Shown here: positions 7,049-28,670 of the stretch, one piece after another | How the letters are laid out: every line of letters begins with the position of its first letter | Numbering within the stretch: the stretch's first letter is position 1 | IMG/VR virus record: IMGVR_UViG_2588253749_000005 | DNA: 35,205 nucleotides | Reading direction: 5' to 3' (one strand) | Origin: a virus | Taxonomy: Duplodnaviria; Heunggongvirae; Uroviricota; Caudoviricetes | Made by a program: the position numbers and the translations under genes | Notes under the pieces: model-generated | The model's database searches: none | The model's input: the letters and a program-made list of their open reading frames with translations, nothing else | Told to the model about the DNA's origin: nothing

Positions 7049-8239
7049 TTAATTGCTGTTAACCGAGGTGACCAGATTTGCCAGGTATTTATCGGTAATA
7101 CGCTGGCGCAGGGTCAGGTTTTCGAGAGGAGGCACCGGTGTATAGTCGTAGTCGATATACAGTTTTCCGGCCTTGAGGGTTTCCGCATCGTTGGATTCTT
7201 CGCTGAACCAGCAGGTCGCATCCACGATATAGCCGTTTGTTTTCAGCTCACGGAATTTGGCATTGATGCCGTCAACGATGTCGCGAATCAGCGTTGCAGT
7301 GATGGGCTTGTCCACCGCCCACATGTGCGCCTCAGCCATCGTGTCGGCCAGCACCTGCGCGGTGCGGGTGTAGTTTTCAAAGAGGAACAGCGGGTCATCA
7401 GAGCAGGTACGGTTACCCCAGAAGCGGAAACCGTCACGGCGAATCAGCGTTGTGACACCTGACTCGTTCAACAGGTCAGCATCGGTGCCGGACTCCTGCA
7501 AATCCCAGAATACAGAGGCACTGATGCCGGTAACACCGTTTACCCCGACGTTGGACAGCGTTTTATGCCAGCCCTGCTCCTGGTCGATTTTGGCACGCAG
7601 ACCCAGCGCACGGGCGGTGGCATACGCGGTGGCGGTGGTACTGGCGACCGTATCCCATGCGAGGAAATCCGGCCAGATGACCATCAGCTCTCGCTGGCTG
7701 AAATTCTGGCGGTAGGCTTTCACCTCGGAAATGGTTTTACAGCCCCATGCGCTGATATACCCGAAAGCGCGCAGCTTCTGACAGACGGATGCCAGTGCAA
7801 CAGCCACCTCTTTGGTGTCCAGTCCCGGCACGCCGAGAATACGCGGTTTAACACCGGTTACCGACTCTGCCGCCAGCAGGGCTTTCAGTCCGGTATACTG
7901 ACCGTTTTCGTCAGTGGTGCCGATGATATTGGAAACGGTCTGCGCGAGTTTCGTTTCCTCGTCGTCGCCGGTGCCGTCTTCCACGCGCACAACAACAGTC
8001 ACTGGTTTTGACTGGTCGGCGATGGCCTGCAACGATGCCGCCAGCGTGCCTTTTTTACCGGCCTTTGCAATTGCGGTCTGCACATTGGTAATCAGCACAG
8101 GTTTATTGAGGGGGAAGGTTTCCGCATCCGCATCGCTGGCCGTGCAGACCATGCCGACAATGGCCGTGGATACAGTGGAAATGACGCGGGTGCCCTCGTT
8201 AATCTCCAGCACCTGCACGCCGTGATGATAGTCACTCAT
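7049..8239 (-). CDS. FI: Tail sheath protein FI
   Basis: 396 aa, ATG at 8239; recognised as P2 gpFI. Confidence 0.92.
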   Translation of the reverse strand: MSDYHHGVQVLEINEGTRVISTVSTAIVGMVCTASDADAETFPLNKPVLITNVQTAIAKAGKKGTLAASLQAIADQSKPVTVVVRVEDGTGDDEETKLAQTVSNIIGTTDENGQYTGLKALLAAESVTGVKPRILGVPGLDTKEVAVALASVCQKLRAFGYISAWGCKTISEVKAYRQNFSQRELMVIWPDFLAWDTVASTTATAYATARALGLRAKIDQEQGWHKTLSNVGVNGVTGISASVFWDLQESGTDADLLNESGVTTLIRRDGFRFWGNRTCSDDPLFLFENYTRTAQVLADTMAEAHMWAVDKPITATLIRDIVDGINAKFRELKTNGYIVDATCWFSEESNDAETLKAGKLYIDYDYTPVPPLENLTLRQRITDKYLANLVTSVNSN

Positions 8240-8337
8240 CCGTTTAACTCCGTGGTTAATGGGTGCAATTATTTTCTGTTGTGCAGAGCATGAGACGCTA
8301 TTTGACCTGGCTGGTCAGTGGATGAAACAACAGATAA

Positions 8338-8358
8338 AGAAAAGGCGGACAATCCGCC
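8338..8358 (-). terminator. Intrinsic terminator at the 3' side of the FI-G cargo island
   Basis: Minus strand reads GGCGG-attgt-CCGCC followed by TTTTTT; lies between the cargo gene ending at 8725 and the FI upstream region. Confidence 0.5.
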
Positions 8359-8724
8359 CGCCTGTCATGATTTGTACTCACTTATTTCCCGACTGACAAT
8401 TTACATAGCCAAAACGCTATCAAATCTGACAGTCTGCTTTGAGCGATCTGCGGACATTACTAACAGCATTCTGTATGAATAACGGGGGGTAGATCATTCC
8501 TGTCCTCACGACGACGCCTATCTATCATACAGTCGTTCTTTGGATCAAGACGCGTTCTGAAATGGTGTTTTTATGTATGTGCTGAATTCTGGGGCATAGA
8601 GTAAACCTTTCAAATTGCCAGAAACAGAAATGTGCGATTTAGTTGTCAAGTAATACCGGATATTTCAGCGATTCATCAAGAAATCATCGACCAGGCTGCT
8701 GTACATTCTCATCGGACGATTTTA

Positions 8725-9591
8725 CTATTCCTCAAGATCGCAGTTACTGCAATGACCTTCCATCCGGAATGCACCACATTCACAAGGCTCCATAGGAACA
8801 AAACCATCCATCTTGCTGTATTCACATTTATACCAGAGACAGACACCGGCCCTTTGTTCCGGTAAATAAATTACGGATGGGACACTACATTCAGGACATT
8901 CCTGAAAATCCCAAGTTTGCAGATTATTCAGGCTGAAACCACAACAGATACAGTGAGTCCGTGCCGGAAAGCTTTCACCTTGGTAAAGGATAAAATGTGA
9001 AAAACTCTCACAAACGGGACAAAGTGCAAGGGTGTATTCCTGGTTAACAGTTATATCAAGGAATTGTTGCTCAAGAGCGATGATGTCTTGACGTAAATCA
9101 GAGTTCCATGAATTTTCGGTCTCATCTGACTGAATTATGACGAATGCGGGACGAAAAATTTGTTGGTACAGTTCACTCAGTTGCATTGACAGTTCTTGCG
9201 GACGAACCTCAAGGGCAAAATGCTGAAGGTTATTACGCAACTGACCCACCGTTTTCATCATTTGTAATGCAGATTCAGAAAATTCGGCTGGGTAATATGT
9301 CTTTAACAGCTTACAAAGCTGGCTGACGTTGACAGATTTACACTGGTGTAATTCTGACTCGGTTGGATGCGCCGGATCCACACATTTTTCTTGAAGCGAT
9401 GCTGGATTAAAAATCGCTCCAGACCCATTGCGCGAAACTACGGCCTTCAATAATAGCTCAGCGGCCTGAAAGAGGTTAAGCAGGCACTGTTTGTAGTCAC
9501 GTCGATCATGCCCTTCTAGCGCTTTGTTAAAGTAGTCCAGCCCGGTTTTCACTGAATCCAACGCATTTTCTAGTAAGTTAAAACGGACCAT
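8725..9591 (-). CDS. Uncharacterised cargo protein: helical N-terminal domain with HEPN-like R-x4-H motif (RNNLQH) plus Cys-rich zinc-ribbon-like C-terminus
   Basis: Track ORF 8725..9666 starts at GTG; preferred start is the ATG at 9591 preceded by a G-rich RBS (about 288 aa); alternative ATG at 9615; C-terminal 100 aa has CPVC, CICC, CPEC, C-x4-C, CEC and CSNC motifs; AT-rich relative to phage genes. Confidence 0.6.
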   Translation of the reverse strand: MVRFNLLENALDSVKTGLDYFNKALEGHDRRDYKQCLLNLFQAAELLLKAVVSRNGSGAIFNPASLQEKCVDPAHPTESELHQCKSVNVSQLCKLLKTYYPAEFSESALQMMKTVGQLRNNLQHFALEVRPQELSMQLSELYQQIFRPAFVIIQSDETENSWNSDLRQDIIALEQQFLDITVNQEYTLALCPVCESFSHFILYQGESFPARTHCICCGFSLNNLQTWDFQECPECSVPSVIYLPEQRAGVCLWYKCEYSKMDGFVPMEPCECGAFRMEGHCSNCDLEE

Positions 9592-9756
9592 ATTAAAGCC
9601 CCCCCGAATAGGCATCGTCGTTATGCCAGCGCTTCCGCCAGTTACACAAATAGTGATTGTACCCACGAATATTGGGAACCTATTTTAGCATGTTTAACTT
9701 TAGTAGTACTGACACAACATTCATGGAGCGGACTGATTGACTTTTGGGGGCGCGTA

Positions 9757-9785
9757 TTTACAAACTCACTACAATGCTGTATAAT
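9757..9785 (+). promoter_or_regulatory. Candidate sigma70 promoter (TTTACA-17 nt-TATAAT) facing the small hydrophobic ORF
   Basis: -35 tttaca at 9757..9762, 17-nt spacer, -10 tataat at 9780..9785; plus strand, opposite to the flanking cargo genes. Confidence 0.45.
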
Positions 9786-9923
9786 TCGTGAAGAGTGAAT
9801 TTAGCTAGTGCATCCATAGGTTCAATTCCTATGACTACAATTCTCATCACAGCTCTCCCAATAGTCGCATTTATCCGTTACCTCAACGTGTTACTTAACA
9901 ATTACGTCAGTAAGGAGAAGCCT

Positions 9924-10106
9924 ATGAGTAAATTATTCTGCCATGAAGTACTATATGTATCTTGTTTCATTGAAACTTTTTGGGCTGGGGTGATAAGTGT
10001 AGTAGCGGGTCTGATGACGGGCGGTGTCCAAATTATTTTGGCACTAGCTAAATCTTCTCAATTTTTGTTTTTTTTCAAAGCACTTACACCCATAAATATT
10101 ATTTAA
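9924..10106 (+). CDS. Small hydrophobic protein (60 aa, predicted membrane-spanning)
   Basis: ATG at 9924 preceded by AAGGAG with a 6-nt spacer; hydrophobic core FWAGVISVVAGLMTGGVQIILALA; same frame is open from 9795 with an alternative ATG at 9831 (91 aa) lacking an RBS. Confidence 0.45.
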   Translation: MSKLFCHEVLYVSCFIETFWAGVISVVAGLMTGGVQIILALAKSSQFLFFFKALTPINII

Positions 10107-10371
10107 ATCAATAAAATAAGTCACTCTACGCATATTTTCCTTATCATGGTCTTTCGTGTTTTTGTACTCAACATGATCGTTTCCCCTTTCTTTAATACAC
10201 AGTGTGATTAGCTACGTCTTCTATTGGAGCGAAGTGGACGGGTTAATTGAGCTGAATGTCAGCTATGAGCGAGGAACGGACTTCAAGAAAGTACCTAACT
10301 GCGTATCGATTGCAAAATATGACAGTCTGACGGTGTTAAGGGCCGTGAGTGCAGCCCTTAAGAAAAAAGTA

Positions 10372-11307
10372 TTAATAATATATCCTGGCTTGCTCGCTCG
10401 TTTCGGTTAAGTTTATTTCATGGTAGTGATTATTTATAAAGTCACAAAAAGTACTAATTTTATCTTTGAGATTACTCATGCTATGCGTGATTTCGTCGTA
10501 TAAATCGCTTTCCTCCTGATTTCGACAGTGGTCACCGGGATTTATAAAACTATAAGTATCATTTGGTGCTGAATAATTATATGGAGCTTTTCTAAACAAG
10601 ATAATTAGATCACGCCAAGCCGTTGCAAAATCAATTGTAACATTCTTTAAAGCTGTATCATTCAGTTGAAAAACAGGTGAGTTTAAAATGTTCAAAATAT
10701 TATCGTATTCTTCAATAATTAATGAATGAATGTATTTTGCGCCCCACTGCAAATGGTCTATTGTTGAATAAAAATCAATATAATTCAACAATCTCGACAA
10801 ATTTGAGATATCTCTCTTGCGCAAAAATTCTTCCCTCGTCGGTTGGTGTCGTTCGAACATTTGCGGGTAGTACATTTTGAGTACAGCTGGGTCTTTGCTT
10901 AAATCAAAGCTAATATCCTCCCAGAAAACCACATCGACAGGAAACAGGCCTTTTAATTGTCTGGCATCATTGAGTGTTCTTACATAGCGCTGAATGCTAA
11001 CATCCCTGGGCGCTGTCGTAGCGATGTAAAGAACCGTAATTTTTGGGCGAAATTTTTCAGCCTTGAGTAATTCATCATCGATTGTCGCCGTACTGATTCC
11101 TGATACTGTATTTTTACACTGAATTCCAACGAAACGCCCAAGAGAGTCATCACCATATACATCAACTCCATCCTGCCGCTGCCCTGACCGTCCATGTCTG
11201 TTCAGATTAGGATTGGACCATCGCAGTTGGAATGAACTTTTGCACATATCCTCAAATTCGTCCCAAGATTTAGGGGGGGGTAACAACATTGAATTATATG
11301 TAACCAC
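10372..11307 (-). CDS. Uncharacterised cargo protein with N-terminal Mrr-type restriction-endonuclease-like (PD-(D/E)xK fold) domain
   Basis: 311-aa ORF; GTG at 11307 with AAAGGA 7 nt upstream, alternative ATG at 11289; N-terminal WDEFEDMC...GRSGQRQDGVDVYG...GRFVGIQCK matches the Mrr-catalytic-domain pattern (D-x-D ... Q-x-K); C-terminal 170 aa unrecognised; strongly AT-rich. Confidence 0.6.
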   Translation of the reverse strand: MVTYNSMLLPPPKSWDEFEDMCKSSFQLRWSNPNLNRHGRSGQRQDGVDVYGDDSLGRFVGIQCKNTVSGISTATIDDELLKAEKFRPKITVLYIATTAPRDVSIQRYVRTLNDARQLKGLFPVDVVFWEDISFDLSKDPAVLKMYYPQMFERHQPTREEFLRKRDISNLSRLLNYIDFYSTIDHLQWGAKYIHSLIIEEYDNILNILNSPVFQLNDTALKNVTIDFATAWRDLIILFRKAPYNYSAPNDTYSFINPGDHCRNQEESDLYDEITHSMSNLKDKISTFCDFINNHYHEINLTETSEQARIYY

Positions 11308-11769
11308 TTACTAATCCTTTATCTAAGATTCTTCATTTTCGTAATCACTATCATAATCATGCTTGATGTGCAATATCTTATTTGCCATGGTTATATGACG
11401 TGAACATAATATATACTGTAAGTATAAGCAGAATTTATTAATGGTGTTCGCCACTCAACGTAATGGTTTCACACTCTAAGGTTCTTTTTTAATAAATCAA
11501 AACATTATGGACAGTGAATCATATCGGAAATGGTTCCTTTTAAATTGAATAACGGCCCATAGTACACAGGTGTATGTGTTAATCGATTTTTCAGACGTTT
11601 TTTTTCGCCTAACATGAGATTTCGTTCGATTGAGCACCAGACCCAATTACCACTATTTAATGATTTAGGTCGAGTAGTAGTAACGTCAGCTCTTGGCACA
11701 TAGCGGACTGTCAGATTAGGCTTTACTCTGTGCTATAGATATGTAAGCTCACACCAGAGATCATACAAC

Positions 11770-12297
11770 TTATTGCGGCATTTCCGGCCATTCGGGATTT
11801 GCAGGATCCACACGACTGACCAGAACGCTGTAGCGTTCCCATGCTTCCAGTCGGCTGCGTTCCTCATCCGTCGCCATATTCAGCCTGACAGCGCGTTCCA
11901 GCGGCAAAATCACGGATTCAGCTTCGGAAAGTAAAGCTGCCTTTTGTGATTCGGCCTGTTGTTGCTGTTCGTCTGCCGTATAAATCCGCTTAATCACGGC
12001 ACCATCCTTAAACATCCATTTACCTGAGTCATCAGCACGTCGGTTGGAGGTAATATCAGGAACCTCGACAACGCTGAAACCTTCAGGGTTAAGCGTTGAA
12101 GCATCTCTGGTGATGCCGACAATTATATTATTCTCGTCGTAAACAATCTTTATCGTGTCTTCCTGAAAATTACTTACTTCCTCATACCAGTTTTTTCCCT
12201 CTTCGGACCATAACCAGATAACATCAAAATTTTTTGTCAGTTGATATTGGGCAACAGTTTTTGGATTACCCGCAGTAATATTTTTTAAATGCTGCAT
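11770..12297 (-). CDS. G: Tail fiber assembly chaperone G
   Basis: 175 aa, ATG at 12297; recognised as P2 gpG-type; directly downstream of H. Confidence 0.85.
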
Positions 12298-12300
12298 AAA

Positions 12301-14346
12301 TTACACCTGTGCGACGTTATACCATGTGCCATTGATGTATTTTTGTATTGGCCTGAATACTGCGGGGTCATCACCATCGACTTCACCGACAATACCAAGC
12401 CCGGTAATTACGTGCCCTGCTTTCTCATACATCACCCCTTTCTGCATGGTCTGGACAACACGTGTGCCAAGTCTGATATCTCTCACATAGCGGGAATCAA
12501 AGTTACCGTAATCCGAGGGATTAACACGCCCCGTAATATTTATGGTCTTATTACTTTGAATGCTTCCGGAAACAAAGCGCATAACATGGACGTTATTAGC
12601 ATAAACATCCAGATTACCATCGCCATTTTGTTTAAATCCGGTGTCGTTATCACCAAGAACAATAGAGTTCCCACCCAACGCGTTATTCGTGCCAAGTGCC
12701 AGCCCGCCATCAATCCTGGCACCATTACCAACAGACACAACTCCTGTTCTTAAGTTGATGCCGAATGGCCTTAATGGCCCAATATCTCCATTTTCACCCT
12801 CATTTTCTCGTGTAGGAATGATATACAGGTTTTCTTCAGAACGGCGAAAAATAGCCCCAAAAGATGAATTAAATATCCTCAGTGCATTGACTGTAGATAT
12901 TTTTACTTCACTGCTGAAAAGGGCTTTAACAAGAACATACAGAGCATCCCATTTAAGATTCATCAGGTCTTTTGTTGTGGTGCTCTGGCGACTTCTCCAT
13001 TTGAAATATTCATTGCCGTTGTCACCTGTTTCAAACCACATATATGAATCAGTATCGCTGTCGGCATCATTTTTAAATCCAATCTTTGCCCAGTCAGTAT
13101 TTCGAATCCAGGCAAGGATTGAGTCGTTTTCAAAAGTAAGCCCACCGGACAAGGTATCGCCATTCTTTTGCACCGCGTTCCTGGCCCTGTTTACCGTTTC
13201 CTGCAAACCGAGGTATTCGATAACGGCAGTAACGGTCGCTTTGGCAAGAATATCCCGTCCGACTTTTGTCAGGGTTGCCAGGCTGGCAACATCATTCCCC
13301 GTAAAATACGGAAACCTGTCTGCCGCAGTAGCAAGCCCCGCCAGCGCCGTCAGGGTAGCATCTTTCGGTTGCTTACCCGCAAGCGCATTAGTCATGGTGG
13401 TAGCAAAATTCGGGTCATTGCCCAGCGCCGCCGCCAGCTCGTTCAGCGTATTCAGTGCGTCAGGCGACGAGTCTACAAGGGCGGCAATCGCGGCCATAAC
13501 GAAAGCCGTGTTTGCGATCTGAGTATTATTCGTTCCCTGTCGCGCAGTTGGCGTCGTTGGCGTTCCGGTCAGTGCAGGGCTGTTTAATGGCGCTTTTTTG
13601 TTCGTTTCATCCATTACCGTCTTAACGGCTTTTGGTGTTGCGGCGAGCGTTTCAGACGTGCTGTTGGTGGCACTACTGAGCTGGACAAGGCCTTTTCGCG
13701 CTGTGGTGGCGTCCTGTGCGGTATATTTCCCGTTAGCCAGGTCATACGCGGCCTTTACCGCTTTCGGCGTTGCGGCCAGTGTTTCAGACGTGCTGTTGGT
13801 CGCACTGCTTAACTGAGTAAAACCTTTTGTGGTCAGCGAGGCGTCCGGGTGACGTCGTGACTGTTCGTGCTCTGCAATTTTGTCATCAACGTAATCCTGC
13901 GTCGCCATCACCGTTGTGGTGTCAATGGTCAGCTCCACTGAGGCCACACTGCTGACGATGATGACCATGCGGCAGGTCTGCGAACGCCCTGAGCCTTCGG
14001 CAAGGGCAGGTTTATAACTTTCGGCCATGTTCGCCACGGCAATTAACGTTCCCGCATCATCGTACAGGCCAAGCTCCCGCATCCAGAAACCGCCCACCTC
14101 CGGCGGAATAATCAGCTCTGCGATAATATAATTACTGTTTCGTTTGTCCTGGCTGATTTTATTCAGCGCATGTCGCCAGACTTCATGGATAAGCCCGGTC
14201 TGTCCGGCATCCGGGACAGGCAATTTACCACCGCCATCCCCGACGGCCATCGTGGTAATGTTGACCTTCCGCCCTCCCGGTGCGGTTGCCGCTGCCAGCT
14301 TTGCTGCACCAACAGTGGTGATAACGGTTTTGAATTTTGTGCTCAT
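12301..14346 (-). CDS. H: Tail fiber protein H
   Basis: 681 aa, ATG at 14346; conserved P2 gpH N-terminus; internal duplicated LSSATNSTSETLAATPKAVK motif; divergent C-terminal receptor-binding part. Confidence 0.9.
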   Translation of the reverse strand: MSTKFKTVITTVGAAKLAAATAPGGRKVNITTMAVGDGGGKLPVPDAGQTGLIHEVWRHALNKISQDKRNSNYIIAELIIPPEVGGFWMRELGLYDDAGTLIAVANMAESYKPALAEGSGRSQTCRMVIIVSSVASVELTIDTTTVMATQDYVDDKIAEHEQSRRHPDASLTTKGFTQLSSATNSTSETLAATPKAVKAAYDLANGKYTAQDATTARKGLVQLSSATNSTSETLAATPKAVKTVMDETNKKAPLNSPALTGTPTTPTARQGTNNTQIANTAFVMAAIAALVDSSPDALNTLNELAAALGNDPNFATTMTNALAGKQPKDATLTALAGLATAADRFPYFTGNDVASLATLTKVGRDILAKATVTAVIEYLGLQETVNRARNAVQKNGDTLSGGLTFENDSILAWIRNTDWAKIGFKNDADSDTDSYMWFETGDNGNEYFKWRSRQSTTTKDLMNLKWDALYVLVKALFSSEVKISTVNALRIFNSSFGAIFRRSEENLYIIPTRENEGENGDIGPLRPFGINLRTGVVSVGNGARIDGGLALGTNNALGGNSIVLGDNDTGFKQNGDGNLDVYANNVHVMRFVSGSIQSNKTINITGRVNPSDYGNFDSRYVRDIRLGTRVVQTMQKGVMYEKAGHVITGLGIVGEVDGDDPAVFRPIQKYINGTWYNVAQV
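13617..13823. repeat. Imperfect direct repeat inside the tail fiber gene
   Basis: Two copies of about 60-70 nt at roughly 13617..13690 and 13748..13823, centred on gtttcagacgtgctgttggt, about 80 percent identical by eye. Confidence 0.6.
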
Positions 14347-16855: not shown

Positions 16856-17641
16856 ATGTTCAGTGATAATGTGATTAATGCGTGGTGGTTTATCTCTTTG
16901 TATCTATTTTTATTAATAGCATTAACATTTGTTACCTTTGGTAAAAGTAATCTTATGAGGTTTATTGCACATCATTTCAATCTTGAGTATTCAGACAGAA
17001 AGTTAAAAATGCTCGACAAAAAATGGCGCGACATTCAACTATTTAAAGTAATTAACGGAATCAATGTATCAGGCATCGAAGATGTGAGAATGATACAGCA
17101 GGGGCTGATTGATGGAAAACTAAAAACATCGTATTTTTTCCTTACTCGCATCTGGGGTGACATAACAAAACCACCACACATAATTAAAACAATAATTGTA
17201 ATTCTGGCCAGTATTTTTTACATTCTCCTCGCATGTTACATACACAACGAACAATCCGTTATAGTAAGGGATGCCATAGGCATACCATATAAAAACATGA
17301 TGTACTATGTTTATAGTGACAAAGTTCTTTTATCCTTCAAAAATAAAGCAGTTGAATTTAATAAAACTTATAGCCTTGCCGATTGCAAGAGACTGCAAAA
17401 CGTATTTATAAAAGACACACTTCCTGAGATCGCCTGCAATAAGCTCTTACAGCTAAACGAGGAGGACTCCGAATGGTTAAGCCAGGAGATTAAAGATAAT
17501 AACAGTCACAAAAAAGCATTATTAATACTATCCCTCGTCTATTTCACTTCAGGTCTGGTTATATTCCTGTCATATACAAAATTCTTTTACGCCAATAAGA
17601 AGGTTTTAGAATACAAAGCATCAAATAAAAATCACTCATAA
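16856..17641 (+). CDS. Uncharacterised three-transmembrane-segment protein in the S-V (P2 orf30) cargo slot
   Basis: 261 aa; ATG at 16856 with GAGGAG RBS 6 nt upstream; hydrophobic segments near the N-terminus, middle and C-terminus; very AT-rich; opposite strand to the surrounding tail genes. Confidence 0.7.
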   Translation: MFSDNVINAWWFISLYLFLLIALTFVTFGKSNLMRFIAHHFNLEYSDRKLKMLDKKWRDIQLFKVINGINVSGIEDVRMIQQGLIDGKLKTSYFFLTRIWGDITKPPHIIKTIIVILASIFYILLACYIHNEQSVIVRDAIGIPYKNMMYYVYSDKVLLSFKNKAVEFNKTYSLADCKRLQNVFIKDTLPEIACNKLLQLNEEDSEWLSQEIKDNNSHKKALLILSLVYFTSGLVIFLSYTKFFYANKKVLEYKASNKNHS

Positions 17642-27075: not shown

Positions 27076-27281
27076 CGCCCGCTTCATGGGGCGGTTTTAA
27101 TGCAGTTGCATGACCACTCAACTAGCGCGCCAGTCCTGATGTCGCCAGGCAGTTATTGTTCTCTGACTTGCGTGCGCTTCGATGCAGAGTAATGCACTTC
27201 CTGAATTGCTCGCATTCGCATCGTTATCATGATAGAAAACAGGTAGTTATTTGTGCGCAACTTAAGAAGAAATCACTAATT

Positions 27282-28670
27282 ATGAAAAAGATTTATGAAT
27301 TAACTACTGGTAGAGCGCTTAAGTATTTTCTGCAGCATGATTCATACACTACTCTGGAGCTACCCAGTTATGTCGATTTTTCTTCCTTGCTTGAAGAAAT
27401 CAACTCCGCGATAGATGAAGGTAAAATCAACTTCCAACCTGACTCCAAGTCATTGATGGGGAAGAATATAAATTACGAGGTTTTAGTCAGCAAAGATGGC
27501 TTATATAGCTGGCGACGAATAACACTAATTAATCCTCTGTACTACGTGTATTTTTGTAAACTTATTACATCCTCTTCCAACTGGAATGCTATAAGGAATA
27601 AATTTAGAGAGTTTGAGTCTAATGATCTTTTTTTATGCTCAAGTATCCCAGTGAGCAAAAAGAACACCTCAAACGTAGCTGCATCTGTTTTAAACTGGTG
27701 GGAAGATTTTGAACAAAAAAGTCTTTCATTGGCTCTTGAGTATGAGTTCATGTTCAGCACAGATATTTCAAACTTCTACCCTTCTATTTACACTCATAGC
27801 TTTGAATGGGTATTCATCTCAAAAGAAGAGGCCAAAAAGAAAGAAAATAACAATAACCCAGGACGATTGATTGACACTCATATCCAGATGATGATGAGTA
27901 ATCAGACAAACGGAATACCATTGGGTAGTACGTTGATGGATACATTTGCCGAATTAATTTTAGGCGAAATTGATTTACAGCTAAGAAAAAAAACCGAAGA
28001 GCAAAAAATAACGGATTACAAAGTAGTTCGCTACAGAGATGATTATCGAATATTTTCAAGCAGTAAAGATGATTTGGACAAAATCTCAAAGTGTTTGGTT
28101 GAGGTCTTAGGTGAGTTTGGGCTTGATTTAAACTCAAGAAAAACAGAACTACATGACGACATCATTCTTCACTCCCTTAAATCAGCAAAAAAAGAATATA
28201 TTATAGAAGGGTCGTTCAACTCCCTACAGAAAATGTTGTATGCAATATATTTATTTTCTTTAAAACATCAAAACTCCAAAATTACAGTCAGATATTTAAA
28301 TGATTTCTTGCGGAAATTATTTAGGAAGAAAAAGATCACAAATAGTGGGCATCAACTAGATGCAATGCTTGGAATTATTTCAAGCATCATGGCTAAAAAC
28401 CCAACCACCTACCCAGTGGGAATGGCTATTTTCGCAAAACTCTTGACCTTCCTTTATGACGACGATGAACTCAAATTTGGCAAGTTACAACAACTTCATT
28501 GTAAACTAGGTAAACAACCAAATACTGAAATGTTAGATATTTGGTTTCAACGAGTTCAAGGGAAGATACACACACAATGGGAAGGCGATTACAAAACAGC
28601 CCTATGTCAACGCATAAATGATGAACTCAAGGAAAAAAAACATTTACCATTGATGGCCTGTGGGATGTAG
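27282..28670 (+). CDS. Reverse transcriptase, Abi-P2-like defence-associated type, in the tin/old slot
   Basis: 462 aa from the ATG at 27282; RT motifs STDISNFYPSIY, NGIPLGSTLMD and VVRYRDDYRIF (YxDD); very AT-rich; sits between cos and A where P2 carries tin/old; the track ORF starts 42 codons upstream at a non-ATG codon. Confidence 0.8.
   Translation: MKKIYELTTGRALKYFLQHDSYTTLELPSYVDFSSLLEEINSAIDEGKINFQPDSKSLMGKNINYEVLVSKDGLYSWRRITLINPLYYVYFCKLITSSSNWNAIRNKFREFESNDLFLCSSIPVSKKNTSNVAASVLNWWEDFEQKSLSLALEYEFMFSTDISNFYPSIYTHSFEWVFISKEEAKKKENNNNPGRLIDTHIQMMMSNQTNGIPLGSTLMDTFAELILGEIDLQLRKKTEEQKITDYKVVRYRDDYRIFSSSKDDLDKISKCLVEVLGEFGLDLNSRKTELHDDIILHSLKSAKKEYIIEGSFNSLQKMLYAIYLFSLKHQNSKITVRYLNDFLRKLFRKKKITNSGHQLDAMLGIISSIMAKNPTTYPVGMAIFAKLLTFLYDDDELKFGKLQQLHCKLGKQPNTEMLDIWFQRVQGKIHTQWEGDYKTALCQRINDELKEKKHLPLMACGM

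Follow-up and report, generated by a model that had tools for sequence, protein, structure and literature searches.

A stand-alone gene of the P2 Z/fun hotspot with a predicted N-terminal Mrr-type nuclease module is a plausible single-gene anti-phage defence candidate

The 35,205-nucleotide stretch of DNA analysed here (the window; IMG/VR record IMGVR_UViG_2588253749_000005) is a P2-like prophage of Escherichia coli, with the host U32 peptidase gene at its left end and the phage integrase at its right. It carries a gene for a 311-residue protein (RefSeq WP_001297780.1, hypothetical protein; PHROG match phrog_8991, function unknown, E 1.9e-220), called the target below, in which a predicted Mrr-type PD-(D/E)xK nuclease module precedes a helical C-terminal domain. 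On balance, with confidence a little above even, the target is read as stand-alone cargo of the Z/fun hotspot that acts as a single-protein defence nuclease against phages or other mobile elements, its C-terminal domain sensing or regulating. It is thus a plausible candidate for single-gene anti-phage defence. What the analysis shows directly is the fold, the conservation of the motif, the modularity of the N-terminal effector, the absence of a partner gene, and a location in a hotspot and, for homologues, in defence islands.

The gene and its parts lie in the window as follows.
10372..11307, minus strand: target coding sequence, complete, 311 residues plus stop, with a GTG start at 11307..11305 (from the open reading frame list)
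10852..11307, minus strand: N-terminal module, residues 1-152, predicted Mrr-type PD-(D/E)xK restriction-endonuclease fold
10375..10851, minus strand: C-terminal domain, residues 153-311, an acidic four-helix bundle with two small beta-hairpins
11113..11163, minus strand: putative catalytic core D49-X13-Q63-C64-K65 on strands 2 and 3 (from conservation and position in the model)
11251..11253, minus strand: E19 in helix 1 (15-30), candidate additional acidic catalytic residue (from conservation)
11315..11319, minus strand: Shine-Dalgarno-like AAGGA, 7 nucleotides before the GTG (read from the sequence)
11273..11280, minus strand: C8 homopolymer, codons 10-12 (Pro-Pro-Pro; from the sequence and alignment with E. 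coli TW10722)

The reading frame, on the minus strand, had been placed correctly by a preliminary description made from the sequence alone, and the strings quoted there (W15-DEFEDMCKSSF-26, G39-RSGQRQDGVDVYG-52 and G57-RFVGIQCKNT-67) are present exactly. The GTG start is preferred over Met7, where the PHROG profile begins, because an M1-x-T3 N-terminus is kept family-wide in the homologue alignment; the 7-nucleotide spacing of AAGGA also backs it. Since full-length homologues at 35-96% identity are spread across Gamma- and Betaproteobacteria, the gene is under selection. In one of the 12 target-carrying E. coli genomes, that of TW10722, the homopolymer is C7 instead of C8 and the target is frameshifted; the RefSeq product there is 291 residues long, starts at Met21 and is without W15 and E19. 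The C7 tract may reflect on/off variation by strand slippage or an error of sequencing. A 43-codon open reading frame directly upstream of the target, at 11323..11454, was considered as a small partner or antitoxin and rejected, as it is conserved only in the closest relatives and its frame is broken by 2-nucleotide indels in Serratia.

An AlphaFold2 model of the whole protein was built from 30 full-length homologues and has a mean predicted local distance difference test (pLDDT) score of 89.8. In its N-terminal half a helix (15-30) is followed by strands at 50-53 and 59-65, a helix (73-83), a strand (92-97), a helix (103-118) and a strand (124-127), which gives the alpha-beta-beta-beta-alpha-beta core of the PD-(D/E)xK fold. 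In structural searches the N-terminal half returned the restriction-endonuclease fold, and the C-terminal half only generic helical bundles. With Foldseek against the Protein Data Bank (PDB), the top matches were MspJI (E 4.7e-3), then Avs4, Card1, EcoO109I and EcoT38I. The nearest structural neighbours of the N-module are Mrr-type nucleases, namely AF1548, MspJI, AspBHI, the nuclease domain of LlaBIII, and Avs4, in agreement with the N-terminal Mrr-type fold claimed earlier. The module is about 150 residues long and includes extra conserved helices (W129...YPQ148). Taken with the model, these matches indicate that the N-module is a divergent clade of Mrr-type nucleases, missed by Pfam thresholds.

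The canonical catalytic positions, where strand 2 (50-53) begins and where strand 3 (59-65) ends, are occupied by D49 and by Q63-C64-K65, respectively. Their conservation was counted over 260 family proteins, distant representatives included. D49 is kept in 259/260, K65 in 258/260 and Q63 in 255/260, the remaining 5 having E at this position (classical ExK). D and Q are separated by 13 residues (an offset of 14 positions) in 245 of 261 aligned sequences, the 260 relatives and the query. A D...QxK variant of the motif is known from Mrr and MspJI-type enzymes. The earlier statement that an acidic pair is followed by Q-x-K holds for the Q-x-K; the pair proposed, in WDEFED, belongs to helix 1, a helix in which E19 alone is strongly kept (E in 240/260, Q in 19), and the putative metal-binding aspartate is D49. 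Because the catalytic residues are near-invariant over 260 diverse proteins, loss of catalysis is unlikely, and we infer that the target would be an active nuclease.

The first homology search gave 171 matches, of which about 50 are full-length; in the others the similarity is limited to the first ~150 residues. When 1.84 billion representatives were searched exhaustively with HMMER, 4966 proteins scored at E <= 1e-3, 1437 of them at E <= 1e-30, and the N-module family comprises ~5,000 clusters at 50% identity. It is spread over many bacterial phyla and over DPANN and Bathyarchaeota genomes; full-length type A proteins, the type to which the query belongs, occur only in Gamma- and Betaproteobacteria. 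In 259 of the 260 collected proteins the module occupies the extreme N-terminus, and it is followed by tails of at least 32 unrelated types (260 sequences). Three groups of tails are large, type A, type B (~297 residues) and type C (~350 residues), and many are singletons. A distant relationship of types A and B is weakly suggested by the alignment of their C-terminal domains (hhalign E 0.0077 over 120 columns); that of type C is unrelated. One type-C relative matches LmuA weakly (1.4e-4, PADLOC).

The same N-module is joined to a P-loop and a NACHT C-terminal NCAB2 domain in a STAND protein of 1523 residues and to a TIR/bSEFIR domain in one of 807 residues, and it heads a 1055-residue TPR protein on a haloarchaeal plasmid (Halomontanus rarus, locus L111, 2340-5507). 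As it is fused elsewhere to STAND, TIR and TPR proteins, the N-module behaves as an effector. These three large proteins are in their own right candidate NLR-like immune proteins with an N-module effector. The target had been described as an 'effector or sensor'; the effector part agrees with these fusions, and the C-terminal domain may be the sensor or regulator. Literature searches found no paper describing the N-module family and no experimental report of reduced phage plating.

The C-terminal half had been called low-complexity and 170 residues long. Neither point held: it has ~160 residues, the Shannon entropies of the C- and N-terminal halves are 4.04 and 4.16 bits, no 12-residue window of the C-terminal half falls below 2.2 bits, this half is conserved, and it is modelled as a helical bundle with a pLDDT of 95.4 and a predicted template modelling (pTM) score of 0.88. 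That it is rich in Asn (9.4%), Ile (10.7%) and Tyr (6.9%) was noted correctly: all three are commoner here than in the N-terminal half, as AT-rich cargo would lead one to expect. It was also right that the domain is unrecognised, as no family match was obtained in Pfam, NCBIfam, PADLOC or PDB sequences. When the C-terminal domain was used by itself in a profile search, 1 protein was returned where ~50 known members were expected; this search thus under-reported and does not bear on whether the domain also follows other N-termini. In the 30-member alignment the mean identity to the query is 46% for the C-terminal domain and 63% for the N-module, the C-terminal half thus diverging faster; D166, W231 and Y243 are invariant and a P-G-D-x-C-R-N-x-E-E loop is conserved.

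The nature of this domain bears on whether the target could be a type IV modification-dependent restriction endonuclease, in which the nuclease would be constitutively competent and the C-terminal domain would read hydroxymethylcytosine (hmC), glucosyl-hmC or methylated phage DNA. The structural neighbours of the N-module favour such an enzyme; nevertheless we consider it unlikely. In Mrr, MspJI and AspBHI the reader is N-terminal and the nuclease C-terminal, and in the target this order is reversed. The C-terminal domain is acidic throughout the family (isoelectric point 4.85-6.35), and because of this the binding or reading of DNA by it is improbable. Its structural matches comprise no winged-helix, SRA or other DNA-reading fold, so the modification reader required of a type IV enzyme was not found. 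Moreover, the same N-module heads STAND, TIR and TPR architectures, which sense proteins rather than DNA marks.

To look for partner genes, open reading frames were clustered over 84 loci of the family. The most frequent neighbour family was present at 7 loci, all of them from related cyanobacteria. A 523-residue protein upstream in 5 loci was considered as a partner and discarded, being GMP synthase at the flank of the insertion site. The target is thus a stand-alone gene without a conserved partner.

The target lies in a low-GC island (guanine-cytosine content 0.36-0.43 against ~0.56 in the phage backbone) bounded by two tail genes.
11770..12297: tail-fibre assembly gene, flanking the island (Caudo_TAP 8e-36)
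7049..8239: tail-sheath gene, the other flank of the island
This slot is the Z/fun hotspot, where phage P2 holds fun(Z). It has been described as the second hotspot of P2-like phages to be enriched in defence genes (PMC9519451; bioRxiv 10.1101/2024.10.15.618418), and the earlier mention of a defence hotspot was therefore apt. Among 5426 complete E. coli genomes the target is present in 12, always at the same prophage site; more than 1000 carry matching flanks. Homologues at 51-65% identity are found on viral contigs of 42-93 kb. Full-length homologues neighbour Kiwa, HigBA and TnpB, and further neighbours are PDC-S06, SIR2-HerA, a type III methyltransferase, Dsr1, a Ppl-like ATPase and HipA. 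The surroundings of one type-B member comprise a DUF4011 helicase, HD-CE, an ORC/Cdc6-like protein and a methylase. Defence genes adjoin homologues in at least 8 sampled loci. The gene thus has the hotspot and defence-island location expected of an anti-phage defence gene, and we infer a defence phenotype for it.

The same surroundings leave some room for a role outside defence. The protein might be an addiction or post-segregational toxin, degrade host or competitor DNA during lytic growth, act in recombination or repair, or be a DNA-binding protein that has lost catalysis. The gene shares its strand with the late tail genes, which makes lytic read-through possible, a Leclercia homologue sits on a phage-plasmid directly beside repB, and non-defence cargo is also found in the Z/fun hotspot (bioRxiv 10.1101/2024.10.15.618418). 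These roles are nonetheless improbable. The near-invariance of the catalytic residues speaks against lost catalysis, and no conserved cognate antitoxin or immunity gene accompanies the family in the 84 loci. The target also appears dispensable for P2-like phages, because it is carried by only 12 of the 5426 genomes though more than 1000 have the matching flanks.

The target as a single-protein defence nuclease could work in the following steps. The N-terminal 150 residues would be a catalytically competent Mrr-type PD-(D/E)xK nuclease with its site at D49, Q63-x-K65 and probably E19, and would serve as the effector. The C-terminal bundle of ~160 residues would hold the nuclease in check. On meeting a phage-derived trigger, this candidate sensor or regulator might release or assemble the nuclease, probably by oligomerisation, by analogy with Avs proteins that have Mrr-like effectors. 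Cleavage of DNA would then stop the infection.

Several results weigh against this reading. At the level of sequence the Mrr assignment is sub-threshold. The query alone matched nothing in Pfam (E <= 1), NCBIfam or PADLOC, and PDB sequences searched with the query (phmmer) and with a profile gave no informative match. When 119 relatives were scanned singly, sub-threshold matches were obtained to Mrr_cat_2 (PF13156) in 33 and to Mrr_cat (PF04471) in 19, at residues ~14-110; other Pfam families were each matched by at most 2 of the 119. The best Pfam Mrr score among the relatives was 20.9 bits against a cut-off of 21, below the gathering threshold. In a weak test, hhalign of the 119-sequence profile against the single sequence of E. 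coli K-12 Mrr (EcoKMrr) was negative (probability 0.2%). The Mrr catalytic pattern proposed earlier thus stands as a nearly invariant D...QxK and falls short as a family match. The C-terminal fold, as modelled, is generic and points to no specific ligand. The pTM of the whole-protein model is 0.51, which makes the relative placement of the two domains uncertain, and because the inter-domain geometry is unreliable, autoinhibition cannot be read from the model. The association with defence islands comes from a sample of loci. Upstream of the target no promoter of consensus quality was found.

A wider and more doubtful proposal is that the N-module constitutes a separate clade of Mrr-like effector nucleases not described before, whose short forms (~300-350 residues, with three major tail types and many minor ones) would be minimal NTPase-free pattern-recognition receptors. 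In these a phage protein would be bound directly by a small helical domain, and oligomerisation would switch the nuclease on, which would make them a stripped-down counterpart of Avs across bacteria and archaea.

The limits of the cassette that carries the target were drawn from homology with Serratia silvae and from the edge of a neighbouring cassette that carries a HEPN-like gene.
~10284..11715, minus strand: mobile cassette carrying the target, approximate, with ~410 nucleotides 5' and ~88 nucleotides 3' of the gene
8725..9666, minus strand: HEPN-like neighbour of 313 residues (288 in RefSeq; PADLOC PDC-S64 3e-21; PHROG 20819, function unknown)
At the Serratia silvae locus (L014) identity to the window is 85% upstream, 89.5% in the coding sequence and 83% downstream, and homology stops ~88 nucleotides past the target stop codon. 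The target cassette directly abuts the HEPN cassette, which ends at 10283. The 410-nucleotide 5' region (11308..11715; L014 5572-6000) was considered as a structured RNA or regulatory element and rejected, having no Rfam match and a fold z-score of 0.11. Its conservation is attributed to recent co-transfer, because 85% identity is not above that of third codon positions (86%).

The proximity of the HEPN-like gene raises the question whether the two form a nuclease and HEPN system resembling PD-lambda-3, a validated pair of this kind (supplement of PMC9519451). Both genes are on the same strand of the same low-GC island and occur together in all 12 target-carrying E. coli genomes. They are, however, 705 bp apart, with an opposite-strand open reading frame and a promoter-like site between them, and in other E. 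coli the HEPN cassette (8432-10283) lies near paoD with the target missing. No HEPN homologue was found in any other locus of the target family, where no neighbour is conserved, so the co-occurrence expected of a pair is not seen. Neither protein matches the PD-lambda-3 models in PADLOC, and the Serratia silvae homology ends before the HEPN cassette is reached. A two-gene system is accordingly very unlikely, and the HEPN neighbour is ruled out as an obligate partner by its separate cassette, its absence at other loci and the Serratia silvae boundary.

The HEPN-like protein has a Cys-rich, zinc-ribbon-like C-terminus and weaker matches to PDC-S19, HEC-08 and Csm6/Csx1 HEPN. The open reading frame between the two genes (9795..10106, plus strand; RefSeq has a 60-residue version, WP_021530427.1) is small and hydrophobic. 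It is preceded by a promoter-like site at 9757-9785 (TTTACA-17-TATAAT), which agrees with the sigma-70 consensus at 11/12 positions. The frame moves together with the HEPN cassette and is 92% identical in strain Ec1119. It could be a partner or regulator of the HEPN gene.

Elsewhere in the prophage, a gene for a 504-residue AbiP2 reverse transcriptase (27156..28670, plus strand; PADLOC 2.1e-152; Pfam RVT_1) lies in a second low-GC island (0.34-0.40). With the portal-side genes on one side and the replication gene on the other, this is the classical old/tin hotspot. Since AbiP2 occupies this slot, the prophage has cargo at both known hotspots. A 261-residue open reading frame at 16856..17641 (plus strand) runs counter to the baseplate and tail genes around it, lies in a third patch of low GC (~0.40-0.42), and gave no significant match in Pfam and PADLOC scans; it may be further cargo. 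From 8240 to 11770 the window is 100% identical to E. coli TW10573. In that strain (locus L001, 10062-13443) the tail-fibre gene H is broken by IS2, and in the window it is an intact 681-residue frame (12301..14346). The window is therefore taken to come from a sister prophage copy and not from TW10573's own.

If active, the target would be a compact, single-gene addition to the prophage-encoded defences of the P2 Z/fun hotspot, and would give a name to a very large unannotated family (~5,000 clusters at 50% identity, in bacteria and archaea) whose N-module recurs as the effector at the N-terminus of STAND, TIR and TPR immune proteins. As the candidate sensor has only 160 residues, an active target would also be a tractable model of a small domain gating a PD-(D/E)xK nuclease. 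No established concept is challenged, effector-plus-sensor nucleases in defence hotspots being already familiar.

Among known systems, the Mrr-type nucleases (PF04471, PF13156; AF1548 1Y88, MspJI 4F0P, AspBHI 4OC8) share the Q-x-K variant with the target and are its fold neighbours. Unlike Mrr, MspJI and AspBHI, it has the nuclease at the N-terminus and not at the C-terminus, and is without a winged-helix or SRA-like reader. Avs4 (8DGF; STAND/Avs) and LlaBIII (4XQK; type ISP) have N-terminal Mrr-like nuclease effectors. Compared with Avs and other STAND proteins, the target is only 311 residues long, with no NTPase match and no repeat sensor, and so lacks the combination of NTPase and sensor that marks that group; P-loop and repeat regions occur only in distant members of its family. 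Sensing by the target, if any, would be left to the 160-residue helical bundle or to something else, unlike in Avs.

The P2 genes fun(Z), old and tin presumably follow the same logic as the target, the exclusion of other phages by a prophage-encoded product. The slot of fun(Z), from tail-fibre assembly gene G to sheath gene FI (PMC9519451), is that of the target. No sequence relationship to these three genes was detected, and at its other hotspot this prophage has AbiP2, not old or tin.

Close parallels are Upx (PMC13099982) and the Mrr-nuclease/beta-propeller system of Vassallo (PMC9519451), which, like the target, combine a PD-(D/E)xK nuclease and a non-catalytic regulatory or sensor part in one polypeptide. 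They too are borne by prophages or islands, some of them in the same P2 fun hotspot. Upx differs in that it has two nuclease domains and that the C-terminal domain holds the catalytic core (PMC13099982). The Vassallo protein joins an N-terminal Mrr-family nuclease to a 7-bladed propeller (PMC9519451), where the partner domain of the target is a four-helix bundle. Scans against PADLOC-DB v2, which includes models for Upx, Lamassu LmuA, PD-T4, PD-T7 and PD-lambda, gave 0 families for the target at E <= 1. The target thus belongs to none of Upx, the propeller system and Avs4, but by analogy with them it would work as a single-chain effector-plus-sensor nuclease.
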